Origin: Escherichia coli | Lineage (GTDB): Bacteria; Pseudomonadota; Gammaproteobacteria; Enterobacterales; Enterobacteriaceae | Strand: one strand, 5' to 3' | Length of the DNA: 64,000 nt | Assembly (NCBI RefSeq): GCF_030384885.1 | Contig: NZ_CP128613.1 | Shown here: piece after piece, positions 1,958 through 46,881 of the stretch | Layout of the letters: each line of letters starts with the position of its first letter | Numbering within the stretch: position 1 is the stretch's first letter | The notes under the pieces: generated by a model | Told to the model about the DNA's origin: nothing | What the model saw: the letters and a program-made list of their open reading frames with translations, nothing else | The model's database searches: none | Program-made: the position numbers and the translations under genes

Positions 1958-3526
1958 TTAGCGTGCCGGCTGAGTAGTCGTGGAAGACTGCTCAAAGTGA
2001 TAGCGACCGGTTTTCAGGCTGCTTGGGCCGAGGCGTGCAAACTTGAACATTAAGAACAATTCTGCCACCAGGAACAGGGTATACAGGCCACAAATCAGCA
2101 CCATCGAGAAGATGAGGTCGCCTGCGGTCAGTGACGAGTTCGCTACAGCTGTCGGCAGCACTTCACCGATAGCCCAAGGTTGGCGACCATATTCAGCCAC
2201 GAACCAGCCCGCTTCTACAGCAATCCACGGCAGCGGAATACCGTACAGTGCGGCGCGCAGCAGCCATTTTTTCTCGCCAATACGGTTGCGGATGACACTC
2301 CAGAAAGAGAGCGCGATGATTGCCAGCAGCAGGAAGCCACACGCCACCATGATACGGAACGCGAAGTACAGCGGCGCTACACGTGGAATGGAGTCTTTGG
2401 TTGCCTGTTGAATCTGCGCTTCAGTCGCATCCGCCACGTTTGGCGTGTAGCGTTTCAGCAACAGACCGTAACCGAGGTCTTTCTTCATGCTATTGAACTG
2501 GTCACGAACCGCCTGGTCAGTAGAACCAGAACGCAGTTGCTCGAGCAGAGAGTACGCCTTCATCCCGTTACGGATGCGTTCTTCATGCTGCACCATCAGC
2601 TCTTTCAGGCCGATAACCGGGGTATCCACGGAACGCGTTGCAATGATGCCCAGCGCGTAAGGGATCTGGATCGCAAATTTGTTCGTCTCCTCTTCCTGAT
2701 CAGGAATGCCGAACAGAGTAAAGGCAGCAGGTGCAGGTTGCGTTTCCCACTCGGCTTCAATAGCAGCCAGTTTGGTTTTCTGCACGTCGCCCATTTCATA
2801 ACCAGATTCATCACCCAGAACAATAACAGACAGAACGGCAGCCATACCGAAGCTGGCAGCGATAGCAAAGGAGCGTTTAGCGAAGGCGAAGTCACGACCT
2901 TTCAGCATATACCATGCGCTGATACCGAGGATGAACATCGCGCCAGTCACATAACCAGACGCTACAGTGTGAACGAATTTCACCTGAGCAACCGGGTTAA
3001 GCACCAGCTCGGAGAAGCTCACCATCTCCATACGCATAGTTTCAAAGTTGAAATCGGATGCGATTGGGTTTTGCATCCAGCCGTTCGCAACCAGAATCCA
3101 CAGTGCGGACAGGTTTGAACCAAGCGCCACCAGCCAGGTGACACACATATGCTGAACTTTACCCAGACGATCCCAACCGAAGAAGAACAGACCTACAAAG
3201 GTGGATTCGAGGAAGAAGGCCATCAGACCTTCGATTGCCAGCGGCGCACCGAAGATATCCCCTACATAGTGGGAATAGTAAGACCAGTTAGTCCCGAACT
3301 GGAACTCCATGGTCAGACCGGTTGCCACCCCCAGAGCGAAGTTGATACCAAACAACTTGCCCCAGAACTTGGTCATATCTTTATAAATCTGTTTGCCGGA
3401 AAGGACGTAGACCGTTTCCATAATGGCCAGCAGGAACGCCATACCGAGCGTCAGTGGCACAAAAAGGAAGTGGTACATCGCGGTCAAGGCAAACTGTAAG
3501 CGCGACAGTTCGACTATATCTAACAT
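1958..3526 (-). CDS. cydA: Cytochrome bd-I ubiquinol oxidase subunit I
   Basis: ORF translation [31 protein letters not shown]... with the GWxxxEYGRQPW Q-loop region; the track ORF begins MM, so the second Met (3526) is taken as the start. Confidence 0.97.
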
Positions 3527-3529
3527 CAT

Positions 3530-3830
3530 GACTCCTTGCTCATCGCATGAAGACTCCGAGAGTGAACCCCGTTAGAAAGGGTCACACGCATGCCCCAATA
3601 CAAAATTATTTGCTCGCCTCTATCGCTGCCTTTTCCTCAAAAGTGGAAAAGACAATGATAAAAAAGTTACAAATATGTTAATGAATAAACCAAATTGATC
3701 CCGTAATTATATTACGCCGCAAAATCCTTACAATAAACAGGTTTTTATTGAGCAAATTTGCATTTTTCGACAGTGATCAATTTATAGCGAAATTGTCACG
3801 ACCTCACCAATTTGATCTACGACAATTTAT
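3530..3830 (-). promoter_or_regulatory. cydAB upstream control region (long AT-rich leader/promoters; ArcA/FNR-regulated in K-12)
   Basis: Position immediately 5-prime of cydA; AT-rich with several TTGAT/ATCAA-like half-sites; individual sites not resolved by eye. Confidence 0.4.
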
Positions 3831-4330
3831 CGTGTTTTGCAGATTTTTTTCAAGAATTAAAAATTGATTTATATCAAAACCAGTCAAATATGTTAATTAT
3901 GTATAAACCATAGACCATTGGTAATTTTATTGTTAATTTATTGTGAAATATTTATGTAACACAATTATTACAATAAAAAGACATAGATAAAAAACCAGTG
4001 TTTTATTTAACAGAATCGCCTTATCAACTTTTTATAATACCAATTGATTAGAGTAGCCAATTTGTTGCTATTTTACATAACATATTTTTATCAAAGTTAA
4101 TTGATTGTTGCCTTTATGAGCATCGCCGTAAGACCGCCATGTTATTGTTTCATTTGTAATAATCACCAATAAGTATCGATGAGAGAGATATCGCTTAACA
4201 GAGGCGACTGTGTCTGCATGAACACAGGCAACTTTCGCCTGATAAACGAAAAATGAGCGATTTTTGCAAGTTAGTTTTTCTATAGCCGGGTACGCTGAGC
4301 GCCTCGCTTGATTACAATGAGGTTGCTGCC

Positions 4331-5275
4331 ATGGGTCTTGATAATATAGGTTCTGTTGTCAATCGCTTCTCTGGTTGGCCATCAAATGATCCTCTAAAAA
4401 CAGATAACGAATCAATGACATCACCCGTGACTGTGCAGGTAATAAAGTTGATTGCCGCCATCCTTGACCCACATCGGATAGTCGTTGGTATCGATACACT
4501 TTATACAACGCAGCGCAAAACATTTACCTCAGAGGGTCAACAACTCATTGAATCAGCATTGAAAACACTTAATGTGATGAATTTAAATAGCCTGGAAACA
4601 GATCGCGATGAGGAGGGTAACTATCTGGCTTTTGGATATAACGTTGACACTCCTGACAGAATAACCGTTTCTGCTTATAATGAAAAAAAACCTTTCTGTT
4701 ATGGCCAATGTCTTTTAATACAGGATGAAGAACCAGATTTATTTAACCTGGTAAAAATTAAAACCTTTGAAGCCAGGCATAATTATGTTTCTAAATTGAT
4801 GAGCGATCCGGAATTTATGTTTAAATTCAGTTATAGCGCCCAACAAAATAGATTAGAACCTCATCTTCTGGTTCCCACTTATTTCCCTCTGAAAACAAAC
4901 CAACCGGTTACGCTAGAGGATGTACTGATACTTTATCGTTTCTTTAAAATGAATGGCGATTTTAATATATTAACATCAGATGAATACATGAGTATCATGA
5001 CACCTCTGATGAAGTGTGAGCGTAGTGTCCACGACCATAACAGGTATGTGACGGGCAAAGATGCTCTTCTTCTGGACAATCCTCCGTCTGGTAACCAGAT
5101 ATATTTCCATATTTCCCCTGACGAATCAGCAACACTTGTCCTTTATTTTTCAGACAATAACCTTGAATCCTTCGTCTTTGAAAATGATATTCCGAGCCAG
5201 TATCGACATTTCAAAATGTTTACCAATTTAGCACTAGTTATTGATCAGTTAACCGACGCCAATCAAATACTTTAA
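4331..5275 (+). CDS. Hypothetical protein (314 aa), no recognisable family; low-GC accessory gene
   Basis: ORF preceded by a GAGG Shine-Dalgarno about 9 nt upstream; AT-rich codon usage unlike the flanking core genes; no transmembrane segments or known motifs seen. Confidence 0.55.
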   Translation: MGLDNIGSVVNRFSGWPSNDPLKTDNESMTSPVTVQVIKLIAAILDPHRIVVGIDTLYTTQRKTFTSEGQQLIESALKTLNVMNLNSLETDRDEEGNYLAFGYNVDTPDRITVSAYNEKKPFCYGQCLLIQDEEPDLFNLVKIKTFEARHNYVSKLMSDPEFMFKFSYSAQQNRLEPHLLVPTYFPLKTNQPVTLEDVLILYRFFKMNGDFNILTSDEYMSIMTPLMKCERSVHDHNRYVTGKDALLLDNPPSGNQIYFHISPDESATLVLYFSDNNLESFVFENDIPSQYRHFKMFTNLALVIDQLTDANQIL

Positions 5276-5354
5276 TTTTCTATACAGCCCTGTGTAAAAT
5301 ATTGCTAAACAGTGCCCGGGGTTGATTTTTATTCCTCACGGTGATATTTAAATC

Positions 5355-5777
5355 ATGACCCCATCTCAGCTCTCTTTTAATACTCTTCCTGTCAATGCAA
5401 CATGCACTTCAGAGATAACAGTAAACACACAAAAATTCTCTGACATCCTCTACTCAGTGGGGTATTCCCTAAAGGATCTGGCTTATCTGAGCAGATGTCT
5501 GGCATCATTACACCCGACACTCGCCAAAAACATTTATGAAACGGAAAATCTCAGCGATCAAAAATTACTGCATATTGATTGCCGTAGTACAAATGAAATC
5601 AAGATAAATATCTTTTTTGGTCAGCAACGAGAAGGATTAATTGAAATTAGTTCTGACACAGTCATTTTTTCGATACTGTCTTCATTGATTGACTCAGCTA
5701 TTTCTGAACATCGACATCAAATCACCGTTAATGATTCAAATAATTCTGAACTATTTTATGAGGATTATACTGATTAA
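5355..5777 (+). CDS. Hypothetical acidic protein (140 aa), co-oriented partner of the upstream 314-aa gene
   Basis: ORF 79 nt downstream of the 314-aa gene on the same strand with the same AT-rich composition; D/E-rich C-terminus. Confidence 0.5.
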   Translation: MTPSQLSFNTLPVNATCTSEITVNTQKFSDILYSVGYSLKDLAYLSRCLASLHPTLAKNIYETENLSDQKLLHIDCRSTNEIKINIFFGQQREGLIEISSDTVIFSILSSLIDSAISEHRHQITVNDSNNSELFYEDYTD

Positions 5778-6320
5778 ATCCACTCTGTGCGAACCTGTCC
5801 TGCATTTATGCCAGAAGTATTAGAATCTTTGATTAACGTTACTCGTACTGGTAGCACCTTCATGTGCCCCTCTTTTTTACGAACAATCAAAAGAACTAAC
5901 AAAGGGCATAATTCGTATAAATCATTAACCATTTGTTATATTCAACATTTTTTTTACATTAAGCAGAGATGAATTGCAGTGAAATTCAAGTTAAATTTTA
6001 CAAAATGTATTACTCATGGCTAAAAAATCTCCCCAAAATGCAAATTAGAAGTTGATCACAATTATCTCAATACATCAAATAAAGTTAATTTTAAAAATTT
6101 AACATTCATGACATTAGTTGACATAACACGCTGAATTAAAATGAGAATTTAAAAACACACTTTAAACAATCATTTCCCGAAAGACATTTTGAAAATAGAT
6201 CAATTGCAACATTACGGTCAGATAAAGACACTCCTCTGATATTAAACCTGTGCCGTTATGAACGGCCATAAATACGACGTGTGTAACTTAATTTACTCTC
6301 TGTCTTACAAAGGATTACCC

Positions 6321-6770
6321 ATGAAGAAAGCAACACTTGTGATTGGCGTTATTGGCGCGGACTGCCATGCAGTAGGCAATAAAGTTCTGGACCGCGTTTT
6401 TAGCAACCATGACTTCAGAGTCATTAATCTGGGCGTAATGGTCAGCCAGGACGAATATATTGATGCTGCCATTGAAACTGGCGCTGACGCAATTGTCGTC
6501 TCCTCTATCTATGGGCATGGCGATATCGACTGTCTGGGCATGCGCGAACGCTGCATTGAGCGTGGCTTGGGGGACATCCTGCTCTATGTGGGCGGCAACC
6601 TGCTGGTCGGAAAACATGACTTCGCTGACGTGGAAACCAAGTTCAAAGAGATGGGATTTGATCGCGTCTTTTCCCCAAGTCATGACTTAGAAGATGTTTG
6701 TCAGCTGATGGCCCACGATATCAACCAACGTCATGACGTTGATACTCGCATTCTTGAAGAGGCAATCTGA
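6321..6770 (+). CDS. Glutamate mutase sigma (S) subunit, B12-binding (GlmS/MutS-type methylaspartate mutase small subunit)
   Basis: Translation [24 protein letters not shown]... contains the DxHxxG cobalamin-binding motif; AAGGA Shine-Dalgarno before the ATG at 6321 (the track ORF starts further upstream); followed by L and E subunits in the clostridial S-L-E order. Confidence 0.85.
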
Positions 6771-8158
6771 TGCAAATCGTCTCTGTCGATATTGGATCGA
6801 CGTGGACCAAAGCAGCCCTCTTCACCCGGGAGGGGGACGCGTTAACGTTGGTTAACCACGTTCTGACCCCAACCACCATCCATCATCTGGCAGAGGGATT
6901 TTTCTCCAGCCTTAACCAGGTGTTAAACGTAGATAATGCCCTCCCCCTGTTAAACCGTGGTGAGGTTGCATTGAAGTATTCCTCCTCTGCCAAAGGTGGG
7001 CTGGCGGTTGCCGCAATGGGATTGGTGCCTTCTATCACCCTGGAAACCGCGAAAGTAACCGCTCACTCTGCGGGTGCTAAAATTGCGCAATATTACGCCT
7101 ACAAGCTGAACCGCCGTGATATCCAGGCACTGGAAGAAACGCAGCCCGATATTCTCTTGTTCACCGGCGGCACCGACGGCGGAGAAGAAAGCTACGGACT
7201 GAATAACGCCCGTGTGCTGGCAGAATCCAAACTCGACTGCGCCATTATTTATGCCGGAAACCGGGATATTCAGGACAAGGTGCAGGAGATCCTCGGGCAT
7301 AAAGACCTGACCATCGTCGACAACGTTCTGCCCGATCTTGACCATCCGAACCCTTTAGCTGCACGCCAGGCTATCTGCGACATATTCCTTAAACGCATCG
7401 TTAAAGGGAAAGGGCTGGATGTCATTGTTGATAAAACAGGCGAAGAACCAATGCCGACACCATGGACGGTCTTTGAACTGGTGAAGGCAATCAGTAACGT
7501 CGATCACAGCTGGAAAGAGTTCATGCTGATCGACATGGGCGGCGCAACCACCGATGTCTATTCCGCCTGTGCCAACACGCTCTCGCCCGACACTGTTTTA
7601 CATGGCGTACCGGAACCCTTCGTAAAACGGACGGTGGAAGGCGATCTGGGAATGCGCGTCTCGGCAATGGTGGTTGGTGAAAGTGCGAAAGAGTTAGTCA
7701 GTGTGAATTTTGCTCAGCAACCCGCACAGTTGGACGCTTTTTATCATTACCTCCGTCATCTAGTCGCTCATCCCGACTACTTACCCGCGAATGCAGATGA
7801 AAAATATTTCGATACCGTCCTGGCCGGACTGTGTGTGGGTTATGCCACCGAAAGACATGCGGGCACCAAAAAAGAGGTCTGCACCTGCGTCGGCAATGTC
7901 GATTTACAGATGGGACGTGACCTGACAACCGTGCGTAAAGTCGTGGGTTCCGGCGGATGGCTCTCGCGTGCCAGTCAGTTCGATATGCATCACTGGTTGA
8001 AATACCGCGAGTTAAACGACGACGGTAAACGCATTCTCTTACCGACCGAATTTGAATATTACCGCGATTCCTGGGGGCTATTACCACTGCTGGCAAACGT
8101 CGCCAGAGTCGATCCGCTGGCCGCCGCGCGCACCAGTATTCAATGCTTAACCCTATAA
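6770..8158 (+). CDS. Glutamate mutase-associated MutL/GlmL protein (putative mutase chaperone/reactivase)
   Basis: 462-aa ORF whose start overlaps the S-subunit stop (TGATG); sits between the S and E subunits as in clostridial glm/mut operons. Confidence 0.75.
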   Translation: MQIVSVDIGSTWTKAALFTREGDALTLVNHVLTPTTIHHLAEGFFSSLNQVLNVDNALPLLNRGEVALKYSSSAKGGLAVAAMGLVPSITLETAKVTAHSAGAKIAQYYAYKLNRRDIQALEETQPDILLFTGGTDGGEESYGLNNARVLAESKLDCAIIYAGNRDIQDKVQEILGHKDLTIVDNVLPDLDHPNPLAARQAICDIFLKRIVKGKGLDVIVDKTGEEPMPTPWTVFELVKAISNVDHSWKEFMLIDMGGATTDVYSACANTLSPDTVLHGVPEPFVKRTVEGDLGMRVSAMVVGESAKELVSVNFAQQPAQLDAFYHYLRHLVAHPDYLPANADEKYFDTVLAGLCVGYATERHAGTKKEVCTCVGNVDLQMGRDLTTVRKVVGSGGWLSRASQFDMHHWLKYRELNDDGKRILLPTEFEYYRDSWGLLPLLANVARVDPLAAARTSIQCLTL

Positions 8159-8176
8159 CAATTAAGGCTGCAATCA

Positions 8177-9622
8177 ATGGAACTTCGAAATAAGAAATTA
8201 ACCCATGACGAATTCATGACCGAGCGGCAACAGGTATTGAAAACCTGGGAAACCGGCAAGGATGTTGAAAACTTTGAAGATGGCGTTAAATACCAACAAA
8301 CCATTCCTGAGCATAAACGCTTCTCTCTTGCCCTGCTGAAAGCAGACAAGGAAGGTAAAACCCTTAGCCAACCGCGCGCAGGCGTGGCGCTGATGGACGA
8401 ACACATCGAACTACTGAAAACACTACAAGAAGAGTGCGATCTGCTGCCGAGCACTATCGATGCATATACCCGTCTGAATCGGTACGAAGAAGCGGCTGTA
8501 GGGATTAAAAAATCCATCGAAGCCGGAACCTCTAAACTGAACGGTTTACCGGTAGTTAACCACGGCGTCGCAGCTTGCCGTCGCCTCACCGAAACTCTGC
8601 AAAAACCGCTACAGATTCGCCACGGCACGCCAGATGCGCGTTTGCTGGCTGAAATCTCGATGGCCAGCGGCTTTACCAGTTATGAAGGCGGCGGCATTTC
8701 CTACAATATTCCGTATGCCAAGCGCGTAACGCTGGAAAAATCGATCCGCGACTGGCAGTACTGCGATCGTTTAATGGGGATGTATGAAGAACACGGGATC
8801 CGCATCAACCGCGAACCGTTTGGCCCACTAACGGGTACGCTAATCCCGCCGTTTATCTCGCACTCTATCGCAATAATCGAAGGCTTGCTGGCACTGGAAC
8901 AGGGTGTGAAGTCTATCACCGTTGGTTATGGTCAGGTCGGCAGCCTGACGCAGGATGTCGCGGCGATCCAGTCTCTGCGTAAACTTGCACACGAATACTT
9001 TCAGAACTATGGCTATACCGACTATGAATTAAGTACCGTGTTTCACCAGTGGATGGGCGGCTTTCCGGAAGACGAATCGAAAGCGTTCGCCATTATCTCC
9101 TGGGGTGCAGCCGTCGCGGGGATGTCTGGTGCCACCAAAGTCATCACCAAAAGTCCGCACGAAGCCTGGGGCATCCCGACTGCTGCTGCCAACATTCAGG
9201 GGCTAAAAGCCTCCCGCCAGATGCTCAACATGGTCAACGAGCAGAAATTCCCGCCGTGCCCGGCGGTTGAACTAGAAATTGAACTGATTAAGAGCGAGGT
9301 TCGCGCGGTACTGAACAAAGTGTTCGAACTGGGTAATGGTGATATTGCGCGCGGTACGGTGCTGGCATTTGAAGCGGGCGTACTGGATGTGCCGTTTGCG
9401 CCAGCCGCCTGCAACGCAGGCAAAATTCTTCCGGTCCGTGACAACACTGGCGCGATTCGCGTACTGGAGGCCGGAGCCGTTCCATTGCCAAAAGATATTC
9501 TCGACCTCCACCACGATTACGTTGCTGAACGCGCGCGCTTTGAAGGACGCCAACCGACATTCCAGATGGTTGTAGATGACATCAATGCTGTATCCCACAG
9601 TAAATTAATAGGAAGACCATAA
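8177..9622 (+). CDS. Glutamate mutase epsilon (E) subunit (methylaspartate mutase large subunit)
   Basis: 481-aa ORF of typical E-subunit length, positioned between the L gene and the methylaspartate ammonia-lyase gene. Confidence 0.85.
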   Translation: MELRNKKLTHDEFMTERQQVLKTWETGKDVENFEDGVKYQQTIPEHKRFSLALLKADKEGKTLSQPRAGVALMDEHIELLKTLQEECDLLPSTIDAYTRLNRYEEAAVGIKKSIEAGTSKLNGLPVVNHGVAACRRLTETLQKPLQIRHGTPDARLLAEISMASGFTSYEGGGISYNIPYAKRVTLEKSIRDWQYCDRLMGMYEEHGIRINREPFGPLTGTLIPPFISHSIAIIEGLLALEQGVKSITVGYGQVGSLTQDVAAIQSLRKLAHEYFQNYGYTDYELSTVFHQWMGGFPEDESKAFAIISWGAAVAGMSGATKVITKSPHEAWGIPTAAANIQGLKASRQMLNMVNEQKFPPCPAVELEIELIKSEVRAVLNKVFELGNGDIARGTVLAFEAGVLDVPFAPAACNAGKILPVRDNTGAIRVLEAGAVPLPKDILDLHHDYVAERARFEGRQPTFQMVVDDINAVSHSKLIGRP

Positions 9623-10863
9623 TGAAAATAAAACAGGCCCTTTTCACCGCTGGCTACTCTTCATTCTATTTCGATGACCAGCAGGCGATAAAAAACGGAG
9701 CGGGTCACGACGGCTTTTTTTATACCGGAGAGCCGGTAACACAGGGGTTTAACGCCGTACGTCAGGCCGGGGAGTGCGTTTCGGTTCAGTTGATTCTGGA
9801 AAACGGTGCGGTCGCCGTAGGCGACTGTGCTGCCGTACAGTATTCCGGGGCAGGCGGTCGCGATCCACTGTTCCTCGCAGAGCACTTTATTCCGTTCCTC
9901 AACGACCATATCAAGCCATTACTGGTAGGCCGCGATGTGGATGCTTTCCTGCCGAATGCCCGTTTCTTCGACAAATTGCGTATTGACGGCAACTTGCTGC
10001 ATACCGCCGTACGTTACGGATTATCACAGGCGCTGCTTGATGCTACCGCGCTGGCAACCGGCCGTCTAAAAACTGAAGTGGTCTGTGATGAATGGCAGTT
10101 GCCACGCGTAGCGGAATCCATTCCATTATTTGGTCAGAGCGGCGACGATCGATATATCGCCGTCGATAAGATGATCCTTAAGGGCATCGACGTGCTGCCC
10201 CATGCGCTGATTAATAACGTCGAAGAGAAGCTGGGCTTTAAAGGTGAAAAACTGCGCGAATATGTCCGCTGGTTGTCGGATCGCATTCTGAGCAAGCGCA
10301 CCAGCGCACGCTACTACCCAACCCTGCACATCGATGTATACGGCACTATCGGTCTGATCTTCGATATGGATCCGCTTCGCTGTGCGCAATACATCGCCAG
10401 CCTGGAAAAAGAAGCGCAAGGCCTGCCGCTCTACATTGAAGGGCCGGTCGATGCCGGTAACAAGCCCGATCAAATTCGCCTGCTGACCGCGATTACCAAA
10501 GAGCTGACGCGCCTCGGTTCCGGCGTGAAAATTGTGGCCGATGAATGGTGTAACACCTACCAGGATATTGTTGATTTCACTGATGCCGCCAGTTGCCACA
10601 TGGTGCAAATCAAAACCCCGGATCTGGGCAGTATTCACAACATCGTCGATGCAGTTCTTTATTGCAACAGCCACAGCATGGAAGCGTACCAGGGCGGCAC
10701 CTGCAATGAAACTGATGTCAGTGCCCGCACCTGTGTCCACGTCGCCCTTGCTGCTCGCCCCATGCGTATGCTGGTAAAACCAGGGATGGGCTTTGACGAA
10801 GGCCTCGATATCGTCTTCAACGAAATGAATCGTACTATCGCGCTGTTGCAGGCTAAGGATTAA
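9622..10863 (+). CDS. 3-Methylaspartate ammonia-lyase (enolase superfamily)
   Basis: 413-aa ORF, start overlapping the E-subunit stop (TAATG); sequence MKIKQALFTAGYSSFYFDDQQAI... and length match MAL; operon context with glutamate mutase. Confidence 0.85.
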   Translation: MKIKQALFTAGYSSFYFDDQQAIKNGAGHDGFFYTGEPVTQGFNAVRQAGECVSVQLILENGAVAVGDCAAVQYSGAGGRDPLFLAEHFIPFLNDHIKPLLVGRDVDAFLPNARFFDKLRIDGNLLHTAVRYGLSQALLDATALATGRLKTEVVCDEWQLPRVAESIPLFGQSGDDRYIAVDKMILKGIDVLPHALINNVEEKLGFKGEKLREYVRWLSDRILSKRTSARYYPTLHIDVYGTIGLIFDMDPLRCAQYIASLEKEAQGLPLYIEGPVDAGNKPDQIRLLTAITKELTRLGSGVKIVADEWCNTYQDIVDFTDAASCHMVQIKTPDLGSIHNIVDAVLYCNSHSMEAYQGGTCNETDVSARTCVHVALAARPMRMLVKPGMGFDEGLDIVFNEMNRTIALLQAKD

Positions 10864-10866
10864 CAA

Positions 10867-12237
10867 ATGGCTCGTTCTTTTAAAGTCTTAGCGCCAACGG
10901 CAATCCTCGGGTATGGATTCCCGGAAGAGAGCTTCCGCAAAGCGATGGCAGAATCGCCCGATCTGATCGCCGTTGATGCAGGATCTTCCGATCCAGGTCC
11001 CCACTACCTCGGGGCAGGCAAACCGTTTACCGATCGCGCAGGAGTCAAGCGCGATCTGCGCTATATGATCACCGCAGGCGTGCAAAATAATATACCGGTG
11101 GTGATCGGAACGGCCGGCGGTTCTGGTGCCGCTCCACACCTGGAGTGGTGCCGAGAAATAATTCATGAGATTGCCCGGGAAGAGCGCCTCTCGTTCTCGA
11201 TGGCGCTGATCCCGGCAGACGTTGACAAAGCCATCGTCCACCAGGCGCTGGATAACGGCAAAATCACGGCGCTGGATTTTGTCCCGCCGTTAACCCACGA
11301 CGCGATTGACGAAAGTACGTATATCGTCGCGCAAATGGGCATCGAACCCTTCCAGCAGGCGCTGAAAGAAGGCGCGCAAGTGGTGCTGGGCGGGCGCGCT
11401 TACGACCCGGCCTGCTTTGCTGCGCTACCGATCATGCAAGGCTTTGATGAAGGTCTGGCGCTGCATTGTGGGAAAATCCTTGAATGCGCGGCAATCGCCG
11501 CAACGCCCGGCTCAGGCTCTGACTGTGCGATGGGCATCATTGATGACAACGGCTTTACGCTGAAGACATTTAATCCGAAGCGTAAATTTACCGAAACGTC
11601 AGCGGCTGCACACACACTGTATGAGAAATCCGATCCCTACTTCCTGCCTGGACCTGGCGGCGTGTTGAACCTGAAAGGCTGCACATTTAAAGCGGTCAAT
11701 GACGGCGAAGTGTACGTCAGCGGTTCTAAGCATGAAGAAACGCCGTATGCCCTGAAACTGGAAGGTGCGCGACGGGTGGGCTTCCGCTGTCTGACCATCG
11801 CAGGAACGCGCGACCCGATCATGATCGCCGGGATCGATAAAATCATCGATGAAGTCAAAACCAGCGTTTCGCGTAACCTGTCGCTCGACGATGACAGCAT
11901 TCGCATCAATTTCCACCTGTACGGCAAAAACGGGGTGATGGGCGACCATGAACCGATGCAAACTGCCGGGCATGAGCTGGGGATTGTCCTTGATGTAGTT
12001 GCACCGACCCAGGATATTGCCAATAGCGTTTGCTCGCTAGTGCGCTCTACCATGCTGCACTACGGCTATGAAAACCGCATCGCTACCGCAGGCAACCTGG
12101 CGTTCCCGTTCTCCCCTTCTGATATCCAGGGCGGGCCGGTATACGAATTTTCCATATATCACCTGATTGAAGCCAACGACGCTCTGCGTTTTGATTTCCA
12201 TATTGAACAGGTGACGCCAGAAGGAGTTCAGGCATGA
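10867..12237 (+). CDS. DUF1446/AtuA-like family protein of unknown function
   Basis: 456-aa ORF 4 nt after MAL in the same operon; family assignment is from memory of AtuA-like proteins and is not verified. Confidence 0.55.
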   Translation: MARSFKVLAPTAILGYGFPEESFRKAMAESPDLIAVDAGSSDPGPHYLGAGKPFTDRAGVKRDLRYMITAGVQNNIPVVIGTAGGSGAAPHLEWCREIIHEIAREERLSFSMALIPADVDKAIVHQALDNGKITALDFVPPLTHDAIDESTYIVAQMGIEPFQQALKEGAQVVLGGRAYDPACFAALPIMQGFDEGLALHCGKILECAAIAATPGSGSDCAMGIIDDNGFTLKTFNPKRKFTETSAAAHTLYEKSDPYFLPGPGGVLNLKGCTFKAVNDGEVYVSGSKHEETPYALKLEGARRVGFRCLTIAGTRDPIMIAGIDKIIDEVKTSVSRNLSLDDDSIRINFHLYGKNGVMGDHEPMQTAGHELGIVLDVVAPTQDIANSVCSLVRSTMLHYGYENRIATAGNLAFPFSPSDIQGGPVYEFSIYHLIEANDALRFDFHIEQVTPEGVQA

Positions 12238-12551
12238 AACAGTCAATTGTCTCACTGGCGCAAGTCATTCGTTCGAAAAATGCCGGACCTTACGAACTGG
12301 TTTTAGATATTTTATTTAAAACGAAAGAAAACTATGAGCGAGTAAAATCATCAGGGCAATTAACCCCAGAACTGATTGCGCGCTTATATCATGTTGAACC
12401 TGACTTTATTCATCGTATTGTCTGGTTTGATCCTTCTAACGCAGTAAAAATTGTCATGCCACGAGATATTATCTCCGGGAATGTAGGTGACAATGATGTC
12501 TATGGCGCACAGCAACATGCACCTTTATTAAATATGAGTTTCGATTTGTAA
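12234..12551 (+). CDS. Small conserved partner protein (105 aa), translationally coupled to the DUF1446-like gene
   Basis: ATGA start/stop overlap with the upstream gene; soluble; DUF1446 proteins commonly pair with a small DUF4387-type protein (recalled, not verified). Confidence 0.5.
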   Translation: MKQSIVSLAQVIRSKNAGPYELVLDILFKTKENYERVKSSGQLTPELIARLYHVEPDFIHRIVWFDPSNAVKIVMPRDIISGNVGDNDVYGAQQHAPLLNMSFDL

Positions 12552-12711
12552 AAATCCGAACACTTTTAGCCAACTGACATCCCGTCACTTATTGCAGCTC
12601 AACACTTCAGCTATTTGTAAGGTTGTTATAGCAGGTAGATGCCTGAATCTCTATTCAGGCATCCACTTCTCCTGATTCTGATTTATCGCCGTGCACCTGA
12701 TGGAGGAAAAA

Positions 12712-13992
12712 ATGAAGAAAATAAGTTTAACCATGATGATTCTTTTGGCGCTGGTACTTGGAATGATTATCGGCGTAGTGCTCAATAACACTGCTTCACC
12801 GGAAACAGCAAAACTCTATGCGCAAGAAATATCGATATTCACGACGATTTTCTTACGACTAATAAAAATGATTATCGCTCCGTTAGTGGTCTCTACCCTG
12901 GTGGTAGGTATTGCTAAAATGGGCGATGCCAAAGCCCTTGGTCGTATTTTTTCTAAAACACTCTTTTTATTTATTTGCGCCTCATTGCTGTCAATTGCCT
13001 TAGGCTTGATAACGGTAAATTTCTTCATGCCAGGCACAGGAATTAATTTTGTTGCACACGGTGCCGAAACCACCGGAGTGGTCGCGTCAGAACCCTTTAC
13101 ACTAAAAGTATTTATTTCGCATGCTTTCCCCACCAGCATTGTCGATGCCATGGCGCACAATGAAATTTTGCAAATCGTGGTGTTCTCAATTTTCCTCGGC
13201 TGTAGCCTGACGGCGATTGGTGAGAAAGGCAGCGCCATCGTTCACGCCTTAGATTCGCTGGCACATGCCATGTTAAAGCTCACTGGCTACGTCATGCTCT
13301 TCGCTCCCCTGACCGTATTCGCCGCTATTTCAGCATTGATTGCTGAACGAGGACTGGCAGTTATGGTGAGCGCCGGGATCTTTATGGGTGAATTTTATTT
13401 CACCATGTTATTACTTTGGGTGCTGCTTATCGGTCTGGCCATCGTTTATGTCGGCCCCTGCATCAGACGCCTGACCCGCGCCCTTTCAGAACCCGCCCTG
13501 CTGGCATTTACCACATCCAGTTCTGAAGCTGCTTTTCCGGGAACGCTTGAAAAACTGGAGCAATTTGGCGTTTCCCCCAAAATTGCCAGCTTTGTCTTAC
13601 CCATTGGCTACTCATTTAATCTCGTTGGATCAATGGCCTACTGCTCCTTCGCCACAGTTTTCATCGCCCAGGCCTGCAATATCCATTTATCCATCGGTGA
13701 GCAAATCACCATGCTGTTGATCCTGATGTTGACCTCGAAAGGAATGGCTGGCGTACCACGCGCCTCAATGGTGGTTATCGCCGCCACGCTCAACCAGTTC
13801 AATATTCCGGAAGCGGGGCTGATCTTGCTGATGGGCGTTGATCCGTTCCTTGATATGGGGCGTTCCGCGACAAACGTCATGAGCAACGCAATGGGCGCTG
13901 CGATGGTGAGTCGGTGGGAAGGCGAACATTTCGGCGAGGGTTGTCGGGGTAAAGCATTAAAACCCAACGAATCGAACGTTGCTCTGCCCTGA
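12712..13992 (+). CDS. Dicarboxylate/amino acid:cation symporter (DAACS family, GltP/DctA-like); probable glutamate or methylaspartate/mesaconate transporter
   Basis: About 426-aa polytopic membrane protein; GGAGG Shine-Dalgarno 6 nt before the ATG at 12712; resemblance to GltP/DctA-type symporters. Confidence 0.8.
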   Translation: MKKISLTMMILLALVLGMIIGVVLNNTASPETAKLYAQEISIFTTIFLRLIKMIIAPLVVSTLVVGIAKMGDAKALGRIFSKTLFLFICASLLSIALGLITVNFFMPGTGINFVAHGAETTGVVASEPFTLKVFISHAFPTSIVDAMAHNEILQIVVFSIFLGCSLTAIGEKGSAIVHALDSLAHAMLKLTGYVMLFAPLTVFAAISALIAERGLAVMVSAGIFMGEFYFTMLLLWVLLIGLAIVYVGPCIRRLTRALSEPALLAFTTSSSEAAFPGTLEKLEQFGVSPKIASFVLPIGYSFNLVGSMAYCSFATVFIAQACNIHLSIGEQITMLLILMLTSKGMAGVPRASMVVIAATLNQFNIPEAGLILLMGVDPFLDMGRSATNVMSNAMGAAMVSRWEGEHFGEGCRGKALKPNESNVALP

Positions 13993-14099
13993 GGGGGATC
14001 TTAAGCAATCAGAAGCCAATGACTACGCATTTTTATAAGCCGGATCATGAAGTTAGACGGCAATTAAGTAACACTAACGTTTAAGGTGAAAAGTGAAAT

Positions 14100-15752
14100 A
14101 TGTCCAAACCATTTATCTGGCAAGAACCGTTTCTACAAAATAAAGACGGTACAGAATATACATTAATTAGCGATCAACATATTACAGTAACGGAATTAGA
14201 CGGCGAAGAAGTGATAAAAATCGCTCCTGAAGCATTAACGCTGCTTGCCCGGCAGGCATTTTATGAAGCCTCTTTTTTCTTACGTTCCGCTCATTTGCAA
14301 CAGGTCGCCAGCATTCTTAACGATCCGCAGGCCAGTAGTAATGATAAATACGTTGCGTTGCAGTTATTACGTAATGCTGAAGTCTCAGCAAAAGGGGTAT
14401 TACCCAACTGTCAGGATACCGGCACCGCAACTATTGTTGCCAGTAAAGGGCAACAGATATGGACGGGAGGTAACGACGCTGAAGCCTTAAGCAAAGGCAT
14501 TTACAGTACTTTCCAGGAAAATAATCTGCGCTTTTCACAAAATGCGCCGCTGGATATGTATACCGAAGTCAATACGCAAACCAATCTCCCGGCGCAGATT
14601 GATATCAGCGCTGTCGCTGGTAATGAGTACCATTTTCTCTGTGTTAATAAAGGGGGCGGCTCCGCCAATAAAGCCGCGCTTTATCAGGAAACCAAATCCT
14701 TATTGCAACCAGAAAAACTGACCGCGTTTTTAATCGACAAAATGAAATCGTTGGGCACGGCCGCCTGCCCGCCCTACCACATCGCCTTTGTCGTCGGAGG
14801 GCTTTCAGCCGATCAAACCTTAAAAGTTGCCAAGCTGGCCTCAACGAAATATTACGACAATTTGCCCACCAGCGGAAATGAGCAAGGACAAGCATTCCGT
14901 GATATTGAGCTGGAAAAAGTATTGCTCGAGGCCAGTCAGCAATTTGGTATTGGTGCGCAATTTGGGGGTAAATATTTCGCTCATGATATTCGCGTCATTC
15001 GTCTGCCGCGTCACGGTGGCTCCTGCCCGATAGCTATGGCGCTCTCCTGTTCTGCCGATCGCAATATCAAAGCCAAAATTAACAAGCACGGTATCTGGCT
15101 GGAAAAACTCGAACACAATCCGGGGCAATATATTCCAGCCTCATTGCGGGAAGAAAATCACGCGCAACATGTACACCTGGATCTAAACCGTCCGTTGCGT
15201 GACGTGATGCAGGATCTCGCCAGATTACCGGTAGGTACCCGCGTGTCGTTAAGTGGTCCCATCGTAGTGGCGCGCGATATCGCCCACGCAAAAATAAAAG
15301 CGCGGCTGGATAGCGGCGAATCGATGCCGGATTACCTGAAGCATCATATTGTCTATTACGCTGGCCCGGCGAAAACACCGGAGAACATGGCCTGCGGTTC
15401 ACTGGGTCCAACCACGGGCGGTCGAATGGACGGTTATGTCGAAACCTTCCAGGCGGCTGGCGGCAGTCTGGTAATGTTATCGAAAGGTAACCGCAGCCAG
15501 CAGGTCACCGATGCCTGTCACAAACATGGCGGCTTCAATCTGGGAAGTATTGGCGGTGCAGCTGCGTTACTGGCGCAAGAATATGTCAAAAGTCTGCGTT
15601 GCCTGGAATACCCGGAGCTGGGTATGGAAGCGGTGTGGATGATGGAAGTGGAAAATCTGCCCGTATTCATCCTGGTCGATGATAAAGGCAATAATTTCTT
15701 TAGTCAGTTTGAGCAGCAACACCGCTGCGCCAGTTGCCCTGCGGGACATTAA
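14100..15752 (+). CDS. fumD: Class I (Fe-S) fumarate hydratase family enzyme; probable mesaconase (mesaconate hydratase) of the methylaspartate pathway
   Basis: 550-aa ORF with class I fumarase character and C-terminal Cys-rich region; genomic association with glutamate mutase and MAL; a mesaconase/fumarase FumD has been described in E. coli O157:H7 (recalled). Confidence 0.75.
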
Positions 15753-15761
15753 GGAAAATGA

Positions 15762-16364
15762 ATGGAAGCGCGAATTTCAACTGAACGGCATGTGCAGCGC
15801 CAGCAGAAATTGAAGGAACAGGTCGATACGCGCGTCGCGGCGGCGATAGAGAAAAAAGGGATCTTGATTGTTTTCACCGGCAACGGCAAAGGGAAATCCA
15901 CTGCCGCGTTTGGTACTGTAACGCGCGCGGTGGGCCATGGCAAAACGGTGGGGGTTGCGCAGTACATCAAGGGGCAATGGGACAACGGCGAATACAACCT
16001 TCTCCAGCCGCTGGGGGTTGAGTTTCATATTATGGGAACCGGTTTTACCTGGGAGACTCAGAACCGGCAAGCGGATATCGACGCGGCGAAAGAGGTCTGG
16101 TCGGAAAGCAAACGGATGCTGGCTGACAAGCGTTACGACTTAGTGGTGCTTGATGAGCTGACCTATATGCTGGCTTACCATTATCTGGACACCGAAGAAG
16201 TGATCACTTCTCTGCAAAACCGCCCGGCACAACAAAGTGTCATTGTCACCGGACGCAGTTGCCACAGTCAGATATTAAAAATGGCGGATACGGTCAGCGA
16301 AATCCGCCCCGTCAAACATGCTTTTGATAACGGCATTCAGGCGCAGCCGGGTATCGACTGGTAA
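15762..16364 (+). CDS. Cob(I)alamin adenosyltransferase (BtuR/CobA family), island-encoded copy
   Basis: 200-aa ORF with P-loop GNGKGKST and overall resemblance to BtuR; functionally coherent with a B12-dependent mutase. Confidence 0.8.
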   Translation: MEARISTERHVQRQQKLKEQVDTRVAAAIEKKGILIVFTGNGKGKSTAAFGTVTRAVGHGKTVGVAQYIKGQWDNGEYNLLQPLGVEFHIMGTGFTWETQNRQADIDAAKEVWSESKRMLADKRYDLVVLDELTYMLAYHYLDTEEVITSLQNRPAQQSVIVTGRSCHSQILKMADTVSEIRPVKHAFDNGIQAQPGIDW

Positions 16365-16397
16365 TAACTGCGCCTGGCATCCCGCCAGGCGCAGGTT

Positions 16398-17303
16398 TTA
16401 CATCTCCTGCGGTACGACCGATTTCGCCAGCAACCATTCACGAAATTGCTGCAAGTGCGGCGAGTCAGACTTCTCTTCCTGCCACGTCATAATAAAACGA
16501 TTACCGGTACGAATAGGCACATCACAGGGAATCACCATATCGCCACTATCCAAATCATGTTGAATAGCGAACCGTGGTAACAGCGCCACGCCGAGATTAG
16601 AGCGCACGGCGGCAATCAGCATTGAAAGCAAATCGAAACGTGGTCCGTTATTGACCAGCGGACTGCTAACGCCAGATAAAGCAAACCACTCTTCCCAGCC
16701 AGTAATACGGGTGCTTTGATGCAGAAGTGGTAACTCAGTAAGCAGTTCTGCCACTGACAGTTTTTGATCGGACATTGCAAGCAAACTGCCGCTGCATACC
16801 GGCAAAATCTCCTCTTCAAAGAGATATTCGACCTCCGCCCAGGGCGCGCAAAAATTTTCGCGCATAATGACAGCATCGTACTCCCGATTAAGAAAATCGC
16901 CGTTATTAGCTAAAGAATGAATATTAACAATAATATCGGGATGTAACTTTGTGAATTCATGTAAATTTGGGATTAACCAGTGGGTACTAAACGTAGGATT
17001 AACGGCAAGTTCAATAACCTGAACCGTAGGCTGCCAGGTCATAATCGTATTGGTATCGCGTTCCAGCTTATTTAATGTTTCTTTTACTATCCCCAGGTAA
17101 TACTTCCCTGCATCATTAAGAAAAATGCGTTTTTTAGAGTGTGAAAATAACGGAGTATGTAAAAATTCCTCCAGCGCACTTACTTGTCTGAATACAGCAC
17201 TTTGGGTTAACGCTAACTCCTCTGCCGCTCTGGTATAGCTTTCATGACGTGCGACGACCTCAAAAGTCACCAGCAGCTCCGTTTTAGGTATTTTTCCTCG
17301 CAT
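16398..17303 (-). CDS. LysR-family transcriptional regulator
   Basis: N-terminal helix-turn-helix TFEVVARHESYTRAAEELALTQSAVFRQVSALE followed by a LysR substrate-binding region; the track ORF uses a TTG upstream, ATG at 17303 preferred. Confidence 0.8.
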   Translation of the reverse strand: MRGKIPKTELLVTFEVVARHESYTRAAEELALTQSAVFRQVSALEEFLHTPLFSHSKKRIFLNDAGKYYLGIVKETLNKLERDTNTIMTWQPTVQVIELAVNPTFSTHWLIPNLHEFTKLHPDIIVNIHSLANNGDFLNREYDAVIMRENFCAPWAEVEYLFEEEILPVCSGSLLAMSDQKLSVAELLTELPLLHQSTRITGWEEWFALSGVSSPLVNNGPRFDLLSMLIAAVRSNLGVALLPRFAIQHDLDSGDMVIPCDVPIRTGNRFIMTWQEEKSDSPHLQQFREWLLAKSVVPQEM

Positions 17304-17892
17304 AATGCCGTCCGTGAAAAAATAACAATTCAAAAATTATTTTATAAAAAACAGTAGCACTAATGAATATCATAATTCAAATAAACAAACCAGTCAGCTA
17401 TATGTCTAACCAGGAAAATAAAGTGACAATAATCCTAAAACAGGAATTTCACCTCAGTTATCCGCATGCAATACTTTAAAGCTATTATTGCAAGAATATT
17501 ATTCATATACATGAATATACTCTAAATAAGTCAAGTTGCAGGAAGGGAACAAATAATGAATATCCAGAAGCTTACATAAGTAAGTGACCTGGGTGAGCGA
17601 ACATCGATGCAGCACATGCAACTTGAATTATGACAAGTATACAATGATAAATTTATATACCCTATGTTATATATTATCTATGTCCGGTTAAATTGAATGA
17701 GTCATAGCCTTAAAAGACTTCACAAAAGATAATTCCTCTTTAACAATAAGCCAGATTTACCACTTGTAAAACTTGCTATCGCCACATACACTACGCGCGT
17801 TTTCTTTCCCTTTTGCTGGCTGCTGACCGGAAAGACAAAATTACCCTCGCAATACAGGGGGTTGATTAACGTCTATATTTCAGGACAGCGTT

Positions 17893-19290
17893 ATGCATCA
17901 TCTTTCAAGGCTTGATAAAGCCTTTCTGCGCAAAGGGATCCAACTTTCCCGCGCCAACAATATTGTTTCATTATGTCGTCCATCAGGAGCCAGTGCCCGC
18001 GTACTGCTGCCGGACGAACTGCTGCTGGAAGAAAAAGCAGTGACACAACTGCTTGATTTTGCAGAAGTGAAGATACCAGGCCATCCAGGTTACGTACGCC
18101 AGACCTGTGCGACGCCAGATTTTCATCCCGGCAATGGCGTCCCCGTTGGCGCGGTGGTGGCCTCTACGCCGGATTTAGTCATTCCTGCGGCCATCGGCAC
18201 CGATATTTCTTGTGGCATGCGGCTGCTGACGACCGGATTAACACTTGAGCAAGCCGAAGCGCATAAAGACATCATCACTCAGCGGTTAACGCAAGTGCTA
18301 CTGCAAAATGAGCGCGATGTTCCGTTATCCGCACAGGCGTTCACCGCGCTTTTTGATGGCGGACCGGCAGAGTGCATGTCAGCCTTGCCATCAGCAGGTC
18401 TCTGGACACGCACGAATATCCCCCGAATGGTACAAGAGATTGACCGCTGCATTGGGCTTAACGAGCATAACAGTCATTCGCGTTATGCCCCACCCGCCCT
18501 GCTGGCAACGGACCGCGCATTACTCCGCGATCCTTGTCTGGGTACGCTGGGTTCAGGTAATCATTTTATTGAACTTCAGGTCGTTGATAGCGTGGTTGAT
18601 CGCCATGTAGCCTGGCAACAAGGGCTGAAAACAGGCGATATTGTGGTGATGATCCACAGTGGATCGCGAGATGTTGGCTTTTACGTCGGAAGACGCTGGA
18701 TGGATCGCGCCCGTGCTGAATGGCCCACCGGACATAAACATCCACAAAGCGGGTTATATGGTCTGGCAGGCGGACTGGCGGAGGAATATCTACAAGCGAT
18801 AGGAATGGCGGCGCGTTACGCGTGGTTAAATCGCGTGACAATTGCCGAAATGGTGCGCGTATGTCTTGCCAATCTCTTTCATCAGGACAATTCGCATCTG
18901 GTGGTGGATGTGCCACATAACATCATCCTTCGCGAGCATGAAATGAATATTCATCGCAAAGGCGCAACACCGGCACGAGTGGGCAATCTGGCGTTAATCC
19001 CCGGTTCAATGGGCGATTATTCCTGGCTTGCGGTAGGTTGCGGCAACCCGGAGTGGCTGTGGTCATGCAGTCACGGAGCAGGACGCAGCCAGCGTCGGCA
19101 GGCCATGCGCTCACGCGCGACTGAAGAGTCAACGTTGCCGTGGCAATGCGTCACATTGCGCGAAGAACGACGTCTTGAAGAAGCGCCAGCGGCTTATAAA
19201 GATATTGGTCCGGTTATCGAAGCTCAACAAGAAGCCGGATTAATTCAGCCAGCGGTCAGATTTCGACCGTGGTTAACGTTTAAAGCATAA
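17893..19290 (+). CDS. RtcB-family RNA ligase-like protein (orphan paralog, 465 aa)
   Basis: Motifs IPAAIGTDISCGM and C-terminal CSHGAGRSQ resemble RtcB metal-binding and active-site regions; no rtcA, rtcR or prfH-like gene nearby. Confidence 0.75.
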   Translation: MHHLSRLDKAFLRKGIQLSRANNIVSLCRPSGASARVLLPDELLLEEKAVTQLLDFAEVKIPGHPGYVRQTCATPDFHPGNGVPVGAVVASTPDLVIPAAIGTDISCGMRLLTTGLTLEQAEAHKDIITQRLTQVLLQNERDVPLSAQAFTALFDGGPAECMSALPSAGLWTRTNIPRMVQEIDRCIGLNEHNSHSRYAPPALLATDRALLRDPCLGTLGSGNHFIELQVVDSVVDRHVAWQQGLKTGDIVVMIHSGSRDVGFYVGRRWMDRARAEWPTGHKHPQSGLYGLAGGLAEEYLQAIGMAARYAWLNRVTIAEMVRVCLANLFHQDNSHLVVDVPHNIILREHEMNIHRKGATPARVGNLALIPGSMGDYSWLAVGCGNPEWLWSCSHGAGRSQRRQAMRSRATEESTLPWQCVTLREERRLEEAPAAYKDIGPVIEAQQEAGLIQPAVRFRPWLTFKA

Positions 19291-45412: not shown

Positions 45413-45748
45413 TCAGTAACTGCAAAGGAGAAAAATAGTCACTCCGATGAGATTACTCAATACCAGCAATAGCTCCCCATCATATAAATAGCCCACCATA
45501 AGATTAATCTCTATCATCTCAATTGCTTTTTGTACAGCAAGCGCCGGTAAGATATTCTGACGAAGCATTTTGGCAATATCATTTTCATCCAGTTCATCGG
45601 GTGTTTTATCTAATAAAGAATTATACCAGTTTATTAAACCACTTTTGAAAGCGAACGAATCATATTGCAGGTGATAAATCTGTTTTAGGGTTTCTTTATT
45701 TTTCAATTTATAGTGCCTTTGTTTGCTATAATTTTTCTGAAATAACAT
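45413..45748 (-). CDS. Hypothetical small protein (111 aa); possible immunity-type partner of the upstream gene
   Basis: AT-rich ORF whose start overlaps the stop of the upstream 155/186-aa ORF by 1 nt (translational coupling). Confidence 0.45.
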   Translation of the reverse strand: MLFQKNYSKQRHYKLKNKETLKQIYHLQYDSFAFKSGLINWYNSLLDKTPDELDENDIAKMLRQNILPALAVQKAIEMIEINLMVGYLYDGELLLVLSNLIGVTIFLLCSY

Positions 45749-46215: not shown

Positions 46216-46217
46216 AA

Positions 46218-46358
46218 TCAATTCCACAAGCGCCCCATTTCCCATGCGGCAAGTGCACCGCCGACAAAGCCGCCAATAAGTACGCAAACAGGTGCTCCTG
46301 GACCACACATCAATCCGGTCAACGCACCGCCTGCGACAGCACCGGCAATAATATTCAT
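46218..46358 (-). CDS. Small glycine-zipper hydrophobic peptide (46 aa), candidate small membrane protein or toxin-like peptide
   Basis: Hand translation gives MNIIAGAVAGGALTGLMCGPGAPVCVLIGGFVGGALAAWEMGRLWN with repeated GxxxG spacing; below the track length cutoff; no strong Shine-Dalgarno seen. Confidence 0.35.
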   Translation of the reverse strand: MNIIAGAVAGGALTGLMCGPGAPVCVLIGGFVGGALAAWEMGRLWN

Positions 46359-46799: not shown

Positions 46800-46881
46800 A
46801 TCATCCAGTTAAATTTCAGTAGTAAATCGTCTATCAAAAAAAGATGAAATTAACATTCATAAATTTATTACAATATGAAAA

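Follow-up and report, generated by a model that had tools for sequence, protein, structure and literature searches.

An AT-rich orphan gene pair, restricted to Escherichia, beside the cydA control region

What are the two AT-rich open reading frames (ORFs) that lie next to the control region of cydA in some Escherichia coli chromosomes, and to which kind of gene pair do they belong? The two, here called A and B and together the cassette, are found in a 64,000 nt stretch of chromosomal DNA (the window) that matches the chromosome of E. coli 2013C-4282 (NZ_CP027579.1) at 100%, and for which the RefSeq gene annotation was used. They are co-oriented, 79 nt apart, and placed between cydA and the glmS gene of the methylaspartate (glm) operon. 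An earlier note, made from the sequence alone, had taken them for a horizontally acquired module, probably silenced by the nucleoid protein H-NS, and had named effector/chaperone, toxin/immunity and defence pairs as architectures of the same kind. The account that we hold to be probable, if only by a little, is that of an orphan pair found only in Escherichia, anchored to cydA, constrained and nearly silent, in which A is the core and B the accessory gene, and which is neither a module of A as toxin and B as antitoxin nor a component of the methylaspartate pathway.

Coding status and taxonomic range of A and B

Nine alleles of A and eight of B were compared, drawn from the window, O157:H7 Sakai and six other E. 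coli strains, with one Escherichia albertii contig added for A. All nine alleles of A and all eight E. coli alleles of B are intact, and their lengths are unchanged. Ratios of non-synonymous to synonymous divergence (dN/dS, or omega) were calculated by the Nei-Gojobori method, and under-representation of non-synonymous change was assessed with a Fisher test. For A the ratio ranges from 0.19 to 0.79 within E. coli and from 0.40 to 0.45 against E. albertii, with Fisher p-values down to 2e-8, while for B it ranges from 0.09 to 0.71 across the eight E. coli alleles. Most values for the two genes lie at 0.1-0.6. For both genes non-synonymous changes are significantly under-represented in the majority of the distant comparisons; between the window and E. 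albertii, A has a dS of 0.58 and a dN of 0.23 (Fisher p = 2e-8). The comparison genes gave an omega of at most 0.006 (cydA) and of 0.02 (glmE). The E. albertii version of A has exactly 314 codons at 62% identity and a dS of about 0.5, and differences in A within E. albertii number 7 synonymous to 6 non-synonymous (p = 0.009). A Shine-Dalgarno sequence, GAGG, stands at 4319-4322, 8 nt 5' of the ATG of A, and is conserved across the species. A and B are genuine coding genes, constrained yet fast-evolving. Because RefSeq annotates both, the sampled alleles are intact and non-synonymous change is under-represented, they are not chance ORFs in AT-rich DNA, a possibility that the earlier note had raised against itself.

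Neither protein gave a significant family match in Pfam, NCBIfam, PADLOC or PHROGs, in agreement with the earlier note, which had recognised no family or motif in them. The best profile matches were at chance level (TIGR03108, E = 0.13; PF01731, E = 0.79; PHROGs, 0.085 or weaker). Pfam scans with single sequences and with every member of two alignments returned nothing significant, no alignment member reaching E <= 0.1, PADLOC-DB v2 (5027 models) gave 0 families for A and B at E <= 1, and a PDB sequence-profile search found no match for either. Searching A by tblastn against phage and plasmid collections produced no genuine match, as the three ‘plasmid’ matches are records of 0.7-4.9 Mb that are apparently mislabelled chromosomes, and IMG/VR scans with both proteins returned nothing.

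Word-indexed searches of 5.8e9 proteins located A and B only in entries of E. coli, Shigella and E. albertii (for B, Escherichia/Shigella). With the A alignment as query, an exhaustive profile search among 1.84e9 representative proteins yielded 14 matches, all of 36-131 aa; because these align end to end with parts of A, we read them as truncated copies of the same gene. A GTDB scan with the A alignment, covering one genome per species, gave four loci: E. albertii, Escherichia sp. MOD1-EC7003, and two contigs of metagenome-assembled genomes assigned to Collinsella sp. and Citrobacter sp. From end to end the two contigs match the Sakai cydA-A-B-glm locus at 97-98% identity, and they were set aside as mis-binned E. 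coli DNA. Three apparent relatives of B at 42-49% identity were likewise rejected, being frameshifted calls from error-rich assemblies. These searches show A and B, as far as sequence similarity reaches, to be restricted to Escherichia. Both are already in databases as hypothetical proteins and are unclassified at the level of protein family. Their locus tags and accessions occur in no main text of the searched literature, nor in the supplements of PMC5597208, PMC4765031, PMC4764244 and PMC8524897, and the O-island review is silent on the locus.

Neither A nor B has a transmembrane segment (A maximum KD19 1.35) or a signal peptide. AlphaFold2 run on the shallow alignments available gave mean confidence (pLDDT) values of 42.0 for A and 41.6 for B, and the models are unusable. 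The structure-based search that the earlier note had proposed thus gave no placement: Foldseek queries of the PDB with these models returned nothing at E <= 0.001, and the TM-scores of 0.08-0.26 are treated as meaningless. The best explanation of the predicted features is that A and B are soluble, acidic, cytoplasmic-type proteins without a recognisable fold. The earlier note had spoken of a large protein followed by a small acidic one; B is acidic as described, but A is so as well (Table 1). Two further ideas were considered and dropped. Similar predicted alpha-alpha-beta-beta-beta-alpha layouts had suggested that B might be paralogous to a module repeated within A, which was ruled out by an hhalign probability of at most 2% and by Smith-Waterman scores not above those of shuffles (p = 0.17-0.76). 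A lipoprotein or secreted protein was rejected, as neither a signal peptide nor a lipobox is present, and most alleles of B have Tyr at the position of Cys17.

The sucD-cydA interval and the history of the cassette

The presence/absence survey that the earlier note had called for shows the cassette to be an accessory unit, carried by 1135 of 5426 complete E. coli genomes (21%) and lacking from the other ~79%. Carriers include O157:H7, O55:H7 and O145 strains, and A is also found in E. albertii. Both genes are intact in a strain of enterotoxigenic E. coli (ETEC) O169:H41, as well as in isolates of varied origin (goat, wild bird, sputum, faeces), none of them named as an attaching-and-effacing pathotype, a kind of strain associated with the locus of enterocyte effacement (LEE).

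The interval between sucD and cydA (3920-19290 in the window) is a replaceable segment with alternative contents, and homology to K-12 upstream of cydA stops at ~3920. In K-12 the interval holds mngR-mngA-mngB and no cassette. In the window and in O157:H7 it holds an rtcB-like gene, a lysR-type regulator, cobO, fumD, a transporter, a DUF4387 gene, an atuA-like gene, methylaspartate ammonia-lyase and glmE-glmL-glmS, followed by B and A. In E. albertii the order is cydA, A, a gene for a 258-aa signal-peptide protein and sucD, without methylaspartate genes, and enteropathogenic E. coli O127:H6 has kept only a 511-bp remnant of glmS. The cassette resembles mngRAB of K-12 and the O157-type glutamate fermentation island (with fumD) in occupying this replaceable segment, at its cydA-proximal end. 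It is found at the same cydA-proximal site in E. coli, in E. albertii and in a cryptic Escherichia lineage, as a rule in one place per genome, and A is divergent from cydA in every case. The cassette is anchored to cydA and not to the methylaspartate island. Since the site is shared by three Escherichia lineages, we take the cassette to have been in the genus for a long time and to be passed on mainly by vertical descent, subject to loss or replacement. The earlier proposal of a horizontally acquired module is not borne out, as no donor, mobility genes, or phage or plasmid relatives were found.

Two deep allele classes are seen across positions 4250-5900: the window type, at an identity of at least 95% in 18 genomes, and a common type that is ~91% identical to it and present in 1113 genomes. 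The glm operon (6320-9600) is ~97.5% identical in all carriers, as against ~91% for the cassette. The allele of strain R32_14_1F seems to be intermediate or recombinant (dS 0.057 to the window allele).

The two genes have not been kept equally. All that is left of B in two E. albertii strains is a remnant of ~30 residues, which in one of the two contains a stop codon, while A is intact in one sampled E. albertii locus, and the E. albertii cluster of A proteins comprises 131 member sequences. C-terminal frameshift variants of B are also present in public E. coli data. A thus persists under constraint without B. Because B has decayed where A is constrained, A is not a toxin held in check by B, and B is dispensable rather than an obligate partner; the toxin (A)/immunity (B) arrangement entertained in the earlier note is contradicted. 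As a separate observation, the A and B sequences of Escherichia sp. MOD1-EC7003 (contig positions 8117-8616 and 9058-9318) are broken up by a short repeat that is present twice, in inverted orientation, whose translation reads ...HTSSCMC.CVRSP.SL.YVSS.GF..LP.SCNSNYL.Y and which resembles an insertion of a miniature inverted-repeat transposable element or a repetitive extragenic palindrome.

The composition of the cassette sets it apart from its surroundings, as the earlier note had said of its GC content and codon usage. GC is 37.9% in A (34% at third codon positions, GC3) and 35.9% in B (GC3 31%), compared with 49-55% (GC3 50-65%) in the neighbouring cydAB, glmS/L/E and methylaspartate ammonia-lyase genes, and the codon-adaptation values of 0.46 (A) and 0.48 (B) are the lowest among 34 genes scored in the window. 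The non-coding flank upstream (3530-4330) has a GC of 33.8% over 801 bp and that downstream (5778-6319) a GC of 31.5%, with a gap of 543 bp to the start of glmS; of the AT-rich flanks of 500-700 bp described earlier, the downstream one is of that size and the upstream one somewhat longer. The whole AT-rich tract, 3530-6319 (2.8 kb), has a GC of 31-38% against 50.2% for the window and includes several of its lowest-GC 500-bp bins. The ORF positions, sizes, orientation and spacing read from the letters agree with the RefSeq annotation of both genes. The neighbourhood consists of cydABX-ybgE, tol-pal, the glm/methylaspartate operon and suc/sdh, and no integrase, transposase or defence gene lies within 15 kb of A and B. 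The features of the locus are listed in Table 1.

Table 1. Features of the cassette locus and its immediate flanks, in window positions
Feature	Position	Strand	Description
ORF A	4331-5275	+	314 aa, 36 kDa, pI 4.84; RefSeq hypothetical protein WP_000522009; ortholog of Sakai ECs0767
ORF B	5355-5777	+	140 aa, 15.8 kDa, pI 4.71; RefSeq hypothetical protein WP_074497578; ortholog of Sakai ECs0766
cydA	1958-3526	minus	Neighbour, divergent from A
cydA-proximal regulatory DNA common to E. coli K-12	3527-3920		Alignable with K-12 up to ~3920
Upstream region specific to the cassette haplotype, presumed A promoter and 5' leader	3921-4330		Without homology to K-12
A-B spacer	5276-5354		79 nt; weak hairpin, then T-run
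B-glmS AT-rich spacer, presumed methylaspartate operon promoter region	5778-6320		Assigned from composition; RefSeq glmS start is 6321

Three other places in the window may be mentioned. The DUF4387 gene inside the methylaspartate island (12234-12551) is AT-rich like A and B, with a GC of 38% (GC3 32%), and overlaps the upstream atuA-like gene, of 55% GC, by 4 nt. A lone gene for an RtcB-family RNA ligase (17893-19290) adjoins sucD and a divergent LysR-type regulator, without an annotated rtcA or rtcR in its vicinity. The AT content of the window is highest at ~45413-47235, between ybgA and ybfA, where GC falls to 27.6%. This stretch contains an IS630 fragment and three hypothetical ORFs besides an orphan immunity gene of contact-dependent inhibition (CDI), and resembles what is left of a toxin locus of the Rhs/CDI type.

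Expression and regulatory DNA

Expression of the locus can be followed in strand-specific RNA-seq of O157:H7 EDL933 under 11 conditions (PMC4048457 Table S4). Four hypothetical ORFs are annotated in that genome between glmS (Z0895) and cydA (Z0900), the second and third of which are taken here as B and A. Z0896-Z0898 have 0-5 reads per kilobase per million (RPKM) in the 11 conditions, and Z0899 has an RPKM of 0 except for 11-12 in two of them, while cydA ranges from 2 to 212 in the same data. Two papers citing Govantes 2000 (PMC3708157, PMC3798270) describe H-NS as repressing the K-12 cydAB promoter region and ArcA as relieving that repression. The supplement of PMC4764244 has no H-NS entry for the cassette locus, and the H-NS nucleation motif TCGATAAATT has one near-match only in the locus, which is uninformative.

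The cassette shares several properties with H-NS-silenced islets of enterobacteria: it is of low GC, accessory (21% of E. coli), without homologs and almost untranscribed, and it adjoins a cydAB promoter with documented H-NS repression and ArcA anti-repression. Unlike such islets, it bears no sign of recent transfer, standing at one site in three Escherichia lineages, and the glm operon beside it, of normal GC, is equally silent in the EDL933 data. Of the earlier suggestion that the genes are probably H-NS-silenced, what is left is that silencing is plausible, given the near-zero transcripts, the AT-rich tract and the action of H-NS at the adjoining K-12 cydAB; the quiet glm operon speaks on the other side.

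The DNA between cydA and A contains conserved segments. A perfect FNR consensus box, TTGATTTATATCAA, lies at 3864-3877 in the DNA shared with K-12 and has no second exact match in the 64 kb window. A direct repeat resembling an ArcA box, GTTAATTGATTGTT, occupies 4096-4109, likewise as the sole exact match of its pattern in the window, with a near-match at 3932-3945. Between E. coli and E. albertii the K-12-shared region (3527-3920) is 93% identical, a non-coding block at 4026-4122, which holds the ArcA-like repeat, 91%, and a second block at 4245-4330, which holds the GAGG, 87%; for comparison, the values are 62-70% for the DNA around the blocks, 76% for the coding sequence of A and 84% for third codon positions of cydA. 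The blocks at 4026-4122 and 4245-4330 are probably regulatory elements or parts of a 5' leader. The arrangement of boxes and blocks suggests that A would be under the control of an oxygen-responsive region common to it and cydAB, and the distal cydA control region may differ between K-12-type and O157-type haplotypes.

No Rfam family was found in 3400-6500, and for none of three stretches, the A leader, the A-B spacer (z = -0.77) and the DNA 3' of B, is the predicted fold any better than in shuffled sequence. A promoter/terminator scan stayed at chance level, with no consensus terminator in the A-B spacer; the hairpin and T-run of this spacer may nevertheless attenuate transcription.

Competing explanations and the meaning of the pair

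One alternative is that A, and possibly B, are type III effectors delivered through the injectisome of the LEE or of E. coli type III secretion system 2 (ETT2), or that B is a class-I-like chaperone for A. We consider this unlikely. Its appeal comes from AT-rich genes in a genus rich in attaching-and-effacing pathogens (E. albertii, O157:H7, O55:H7, O145) and from the proteins themselves. Both N-termini are polar and predicted to be unstructured. B has an N-terminus rich in Ser, Thr, Asn, Pro and Gln and an acidic C-terminal tail; these five residues make up 64% of its positions 2-26, with one charged residue, as against a maximum of 40% among 34 background proteins of the window, whereas the N-terminus of A is not an outlier, its value being reached by 4 of the 34. 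With its 140 aa and pI of 4.7, B falls in the size and acidity range of class I chaperones (~130-150 aa, acidic), a non-specific feature, and its low-confidence model has the layout alpha-alpha-beta-beta-beta-alpha, the class I fold being an alpha-beta-beta-beta-alpha-beta-beta-alpha dimer. Fast evolution (omega about 0.4) and silence in laboratory media would also suit such proteins. As in effector-class I chaperone pairs of the Tir/CesT type, then, a larger protein is joined to one of ~140 aa and pI ~4.7 in AT-rich, rapidly evolving DNA, with polar unstructured N-termini.

Several findings point away from a type III role. Unlike Tir/CesT-type pairs, A and B have no sequence similarity or credible fold similarity to any effector or chaperone. 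B has no Pfam chaperone match; its model, of pLDDT 41.6, gave a Foldseek TM of at most 0.26 and is too poor to weigh either way as to a chaperone fold. A Foldseek match of A to EspG, at TM 0.13 on a model of pLDDT 42, was discarded as meaningless. The long disordered N-terminus of B is atypical of a chaperone. The pair was not found to lie within the LEE, on a prophage or in any effector island, and its context is one of housekeeping genes; known non-LEE effectors are carried on prophages or integrative elements, and the cassette is on neither but simply chromosomal. No relative was found in any genus outside Escherichia, the locus tags are in no paper of the searched literature, and both genes are intact in ETEC O169:H41 and in the isolates not named as attaching-and-effacing (LEE content unchecked). 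E. albertii is LEE-positive, and it is there that the supposed chaperone has been lost and the supposed effector kept, which is odd if the chaperone were required. Of the effector/chaperone comparison drawn in the earlier note, the compositional hints stand (the N-terminus, small size and acidity of B), and the retention in ETEC and other isolates and the loss of B in E. albertii count against the remainder.

A broader version of the same thought is that A and B represent two new families with an undescribed fold that act in interaction with a host or competitor, either as type III (LEE/ETT2) substrates or as a conflict module made conditional by ArcA, FNR and H-NS. To this we assign a low probability. 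If it were true, the new secreted or conflict proteins would provide an Escherichia-specific accessory function linked to the microaerobic gut niche.

It is similarly improbable that the two genes are functionless relics of an ancient insertion, slowly decaying and kept by linkage to cydA and the glm island. Near-zero transcription in 11 conditions, pseudogenisation in several lineages, the frameshifted C-termini of B in public E. coli data, an omega of up to 0.6-0.8 in some close comparisons and the lack of any predicted fold would all be expected of relics. A relic does not readily account for a 945-nt ORF in DNA of 38% GC that has stayed open at identical length across a dS of about 0.5, nor for the deficit of non-synonymous change in the majority of the distant comparisons and within E. 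albertii, nor for the conservation of the Shine-Dalgarno sequence and upstream blocks. In E. coli ST2747 (contig positions 3277-4054), moreover, A and B are intact next to a glmS and a glmL that bear the annotation of fused or truncated pseudogenes.

The linkage to neighbouring operons raises the further question of whether A and B are accessory or regulatory factors of the methylaspartate island or of cytochrome bd-I (cydAB), a reading to which we give very little credence. The glm operon is likewise carried by 1135 of 5426 E. coli genomes (the genome-by-genome overlap with the cassette was not compared), the two are adjacent in Escherichia sp. MOD1-EC7003 and travel together in E. coli, and A is divergent from cydA across a conserved intergenic region with FNR-like and ArcA-like boxes. 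The equal counts in E. coli are, however, explained by physical linkage on one haplotype. The methylaspartate cluster has been reported in Klebsiella, Citrobacter, Salmonella, Yersinia and Morganella (PMC4682846), and no relative of A or B was found in other genera that carry it (in the searches described above; for A, also in the GTDB and representative scans). Since A is present in E. albertii without glm genes, since no relative of either protein was found in these other glm-bearing genera, and since ST2747 has glm pseudogenes beside an intact pair, the linkage is physical and not functional. The cassette differs from the methylaspartate island in composition, with a spacer of 543 bp of AT-rich DNA and a 15-point difference in GC between B and glmS, and is a separate transcription unit. 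As for cydAB, K-12 makes a functional cytochrome bd-I, and K-12 is among the ~79% of E. coli without the cassette; neither protein has a DNA-binding or membrane domain.

Least credible, alongside this, is a conflict module, whether a toxin-antitoxin pair, an abortive infection system or another two-gene anti-phage defence. A and B do form a co-oriented, closely spaced accessory unit of AT-rich DNA at a variable place in the chromosome, the larger protein being encoded first, and such systems are often orphans. However, neither PADLOC nor PHROGs gave a match, and the proteins showed no nuclease, ATPase, NTase or DNA-binding domain and no toxin or antitoxin domain. In being acidic, A and B both differ from typical DNA-binding antitoxins. 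Around them lie operons of respiration and metabolism, with no defence island, defence gene or mobility gene adjacent. The pair sits at one site in every lineage examined, as a rule once per genome and without mobility, and the loss of B beside an intact, constrained A in E. albertii excludes A as toxin with B as its antitoxin. The defence pair of the earlier note finds no support in these results.

We return, then, to the cydA-anchored orphan pair. According to this reading A and B are a taxonomically restricted pair, long resident in the variable sucD-cydA locus and anchored divergently to the cydA control region. They are nearly silent in ordinary growth, for which H-NS-type silencing of AT-rich DNA would be the cause, and their expression would probably be conditional, possibly coupled to the oxygen-responsive ArcA/FNR/H-NS region common to cydAB. 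A would be the functional core and B a dispensable accessory partner, the partnership itself being putative.

A number of points weigh against this account. The A gene of the E. albertii type strain is frameshifted by 1 bp, and stops and insertions have degraded both genes of Escherichia sp. MOD1-EC7003. The cassette is absent from ~79% of E. coli, so any function must be dispensable. Only 9 alleles, as against 1135 carrier genomes, were examined for integrity at the level of single bases. In the EDL933 data, Z0897 was equated with B and Z0898 with A from gene order only, and since the glm operon, with its normal GC, is equally silent there, low expression alone does not show xenogeneic silencing. 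The protein products, the binding of H-NS to the cassette and an inducing condition are all putative.

For the annotation of Escherichia genomes, the results remove three labels that the pair might have attracted, those of an A-toxin/B-antitoxin module, of a known defence system and of a pathway component. The phenomenon is a further example of an AT-rich, probably silenced, lineage-specific orphan islet, and A and B make a small and tractable subject for functional study. Any function that came to light would be a trait of this one genus; failing that, the locus would be a clean example of a long-lived, silenced orphan pair in the course of decay, with B going before A.

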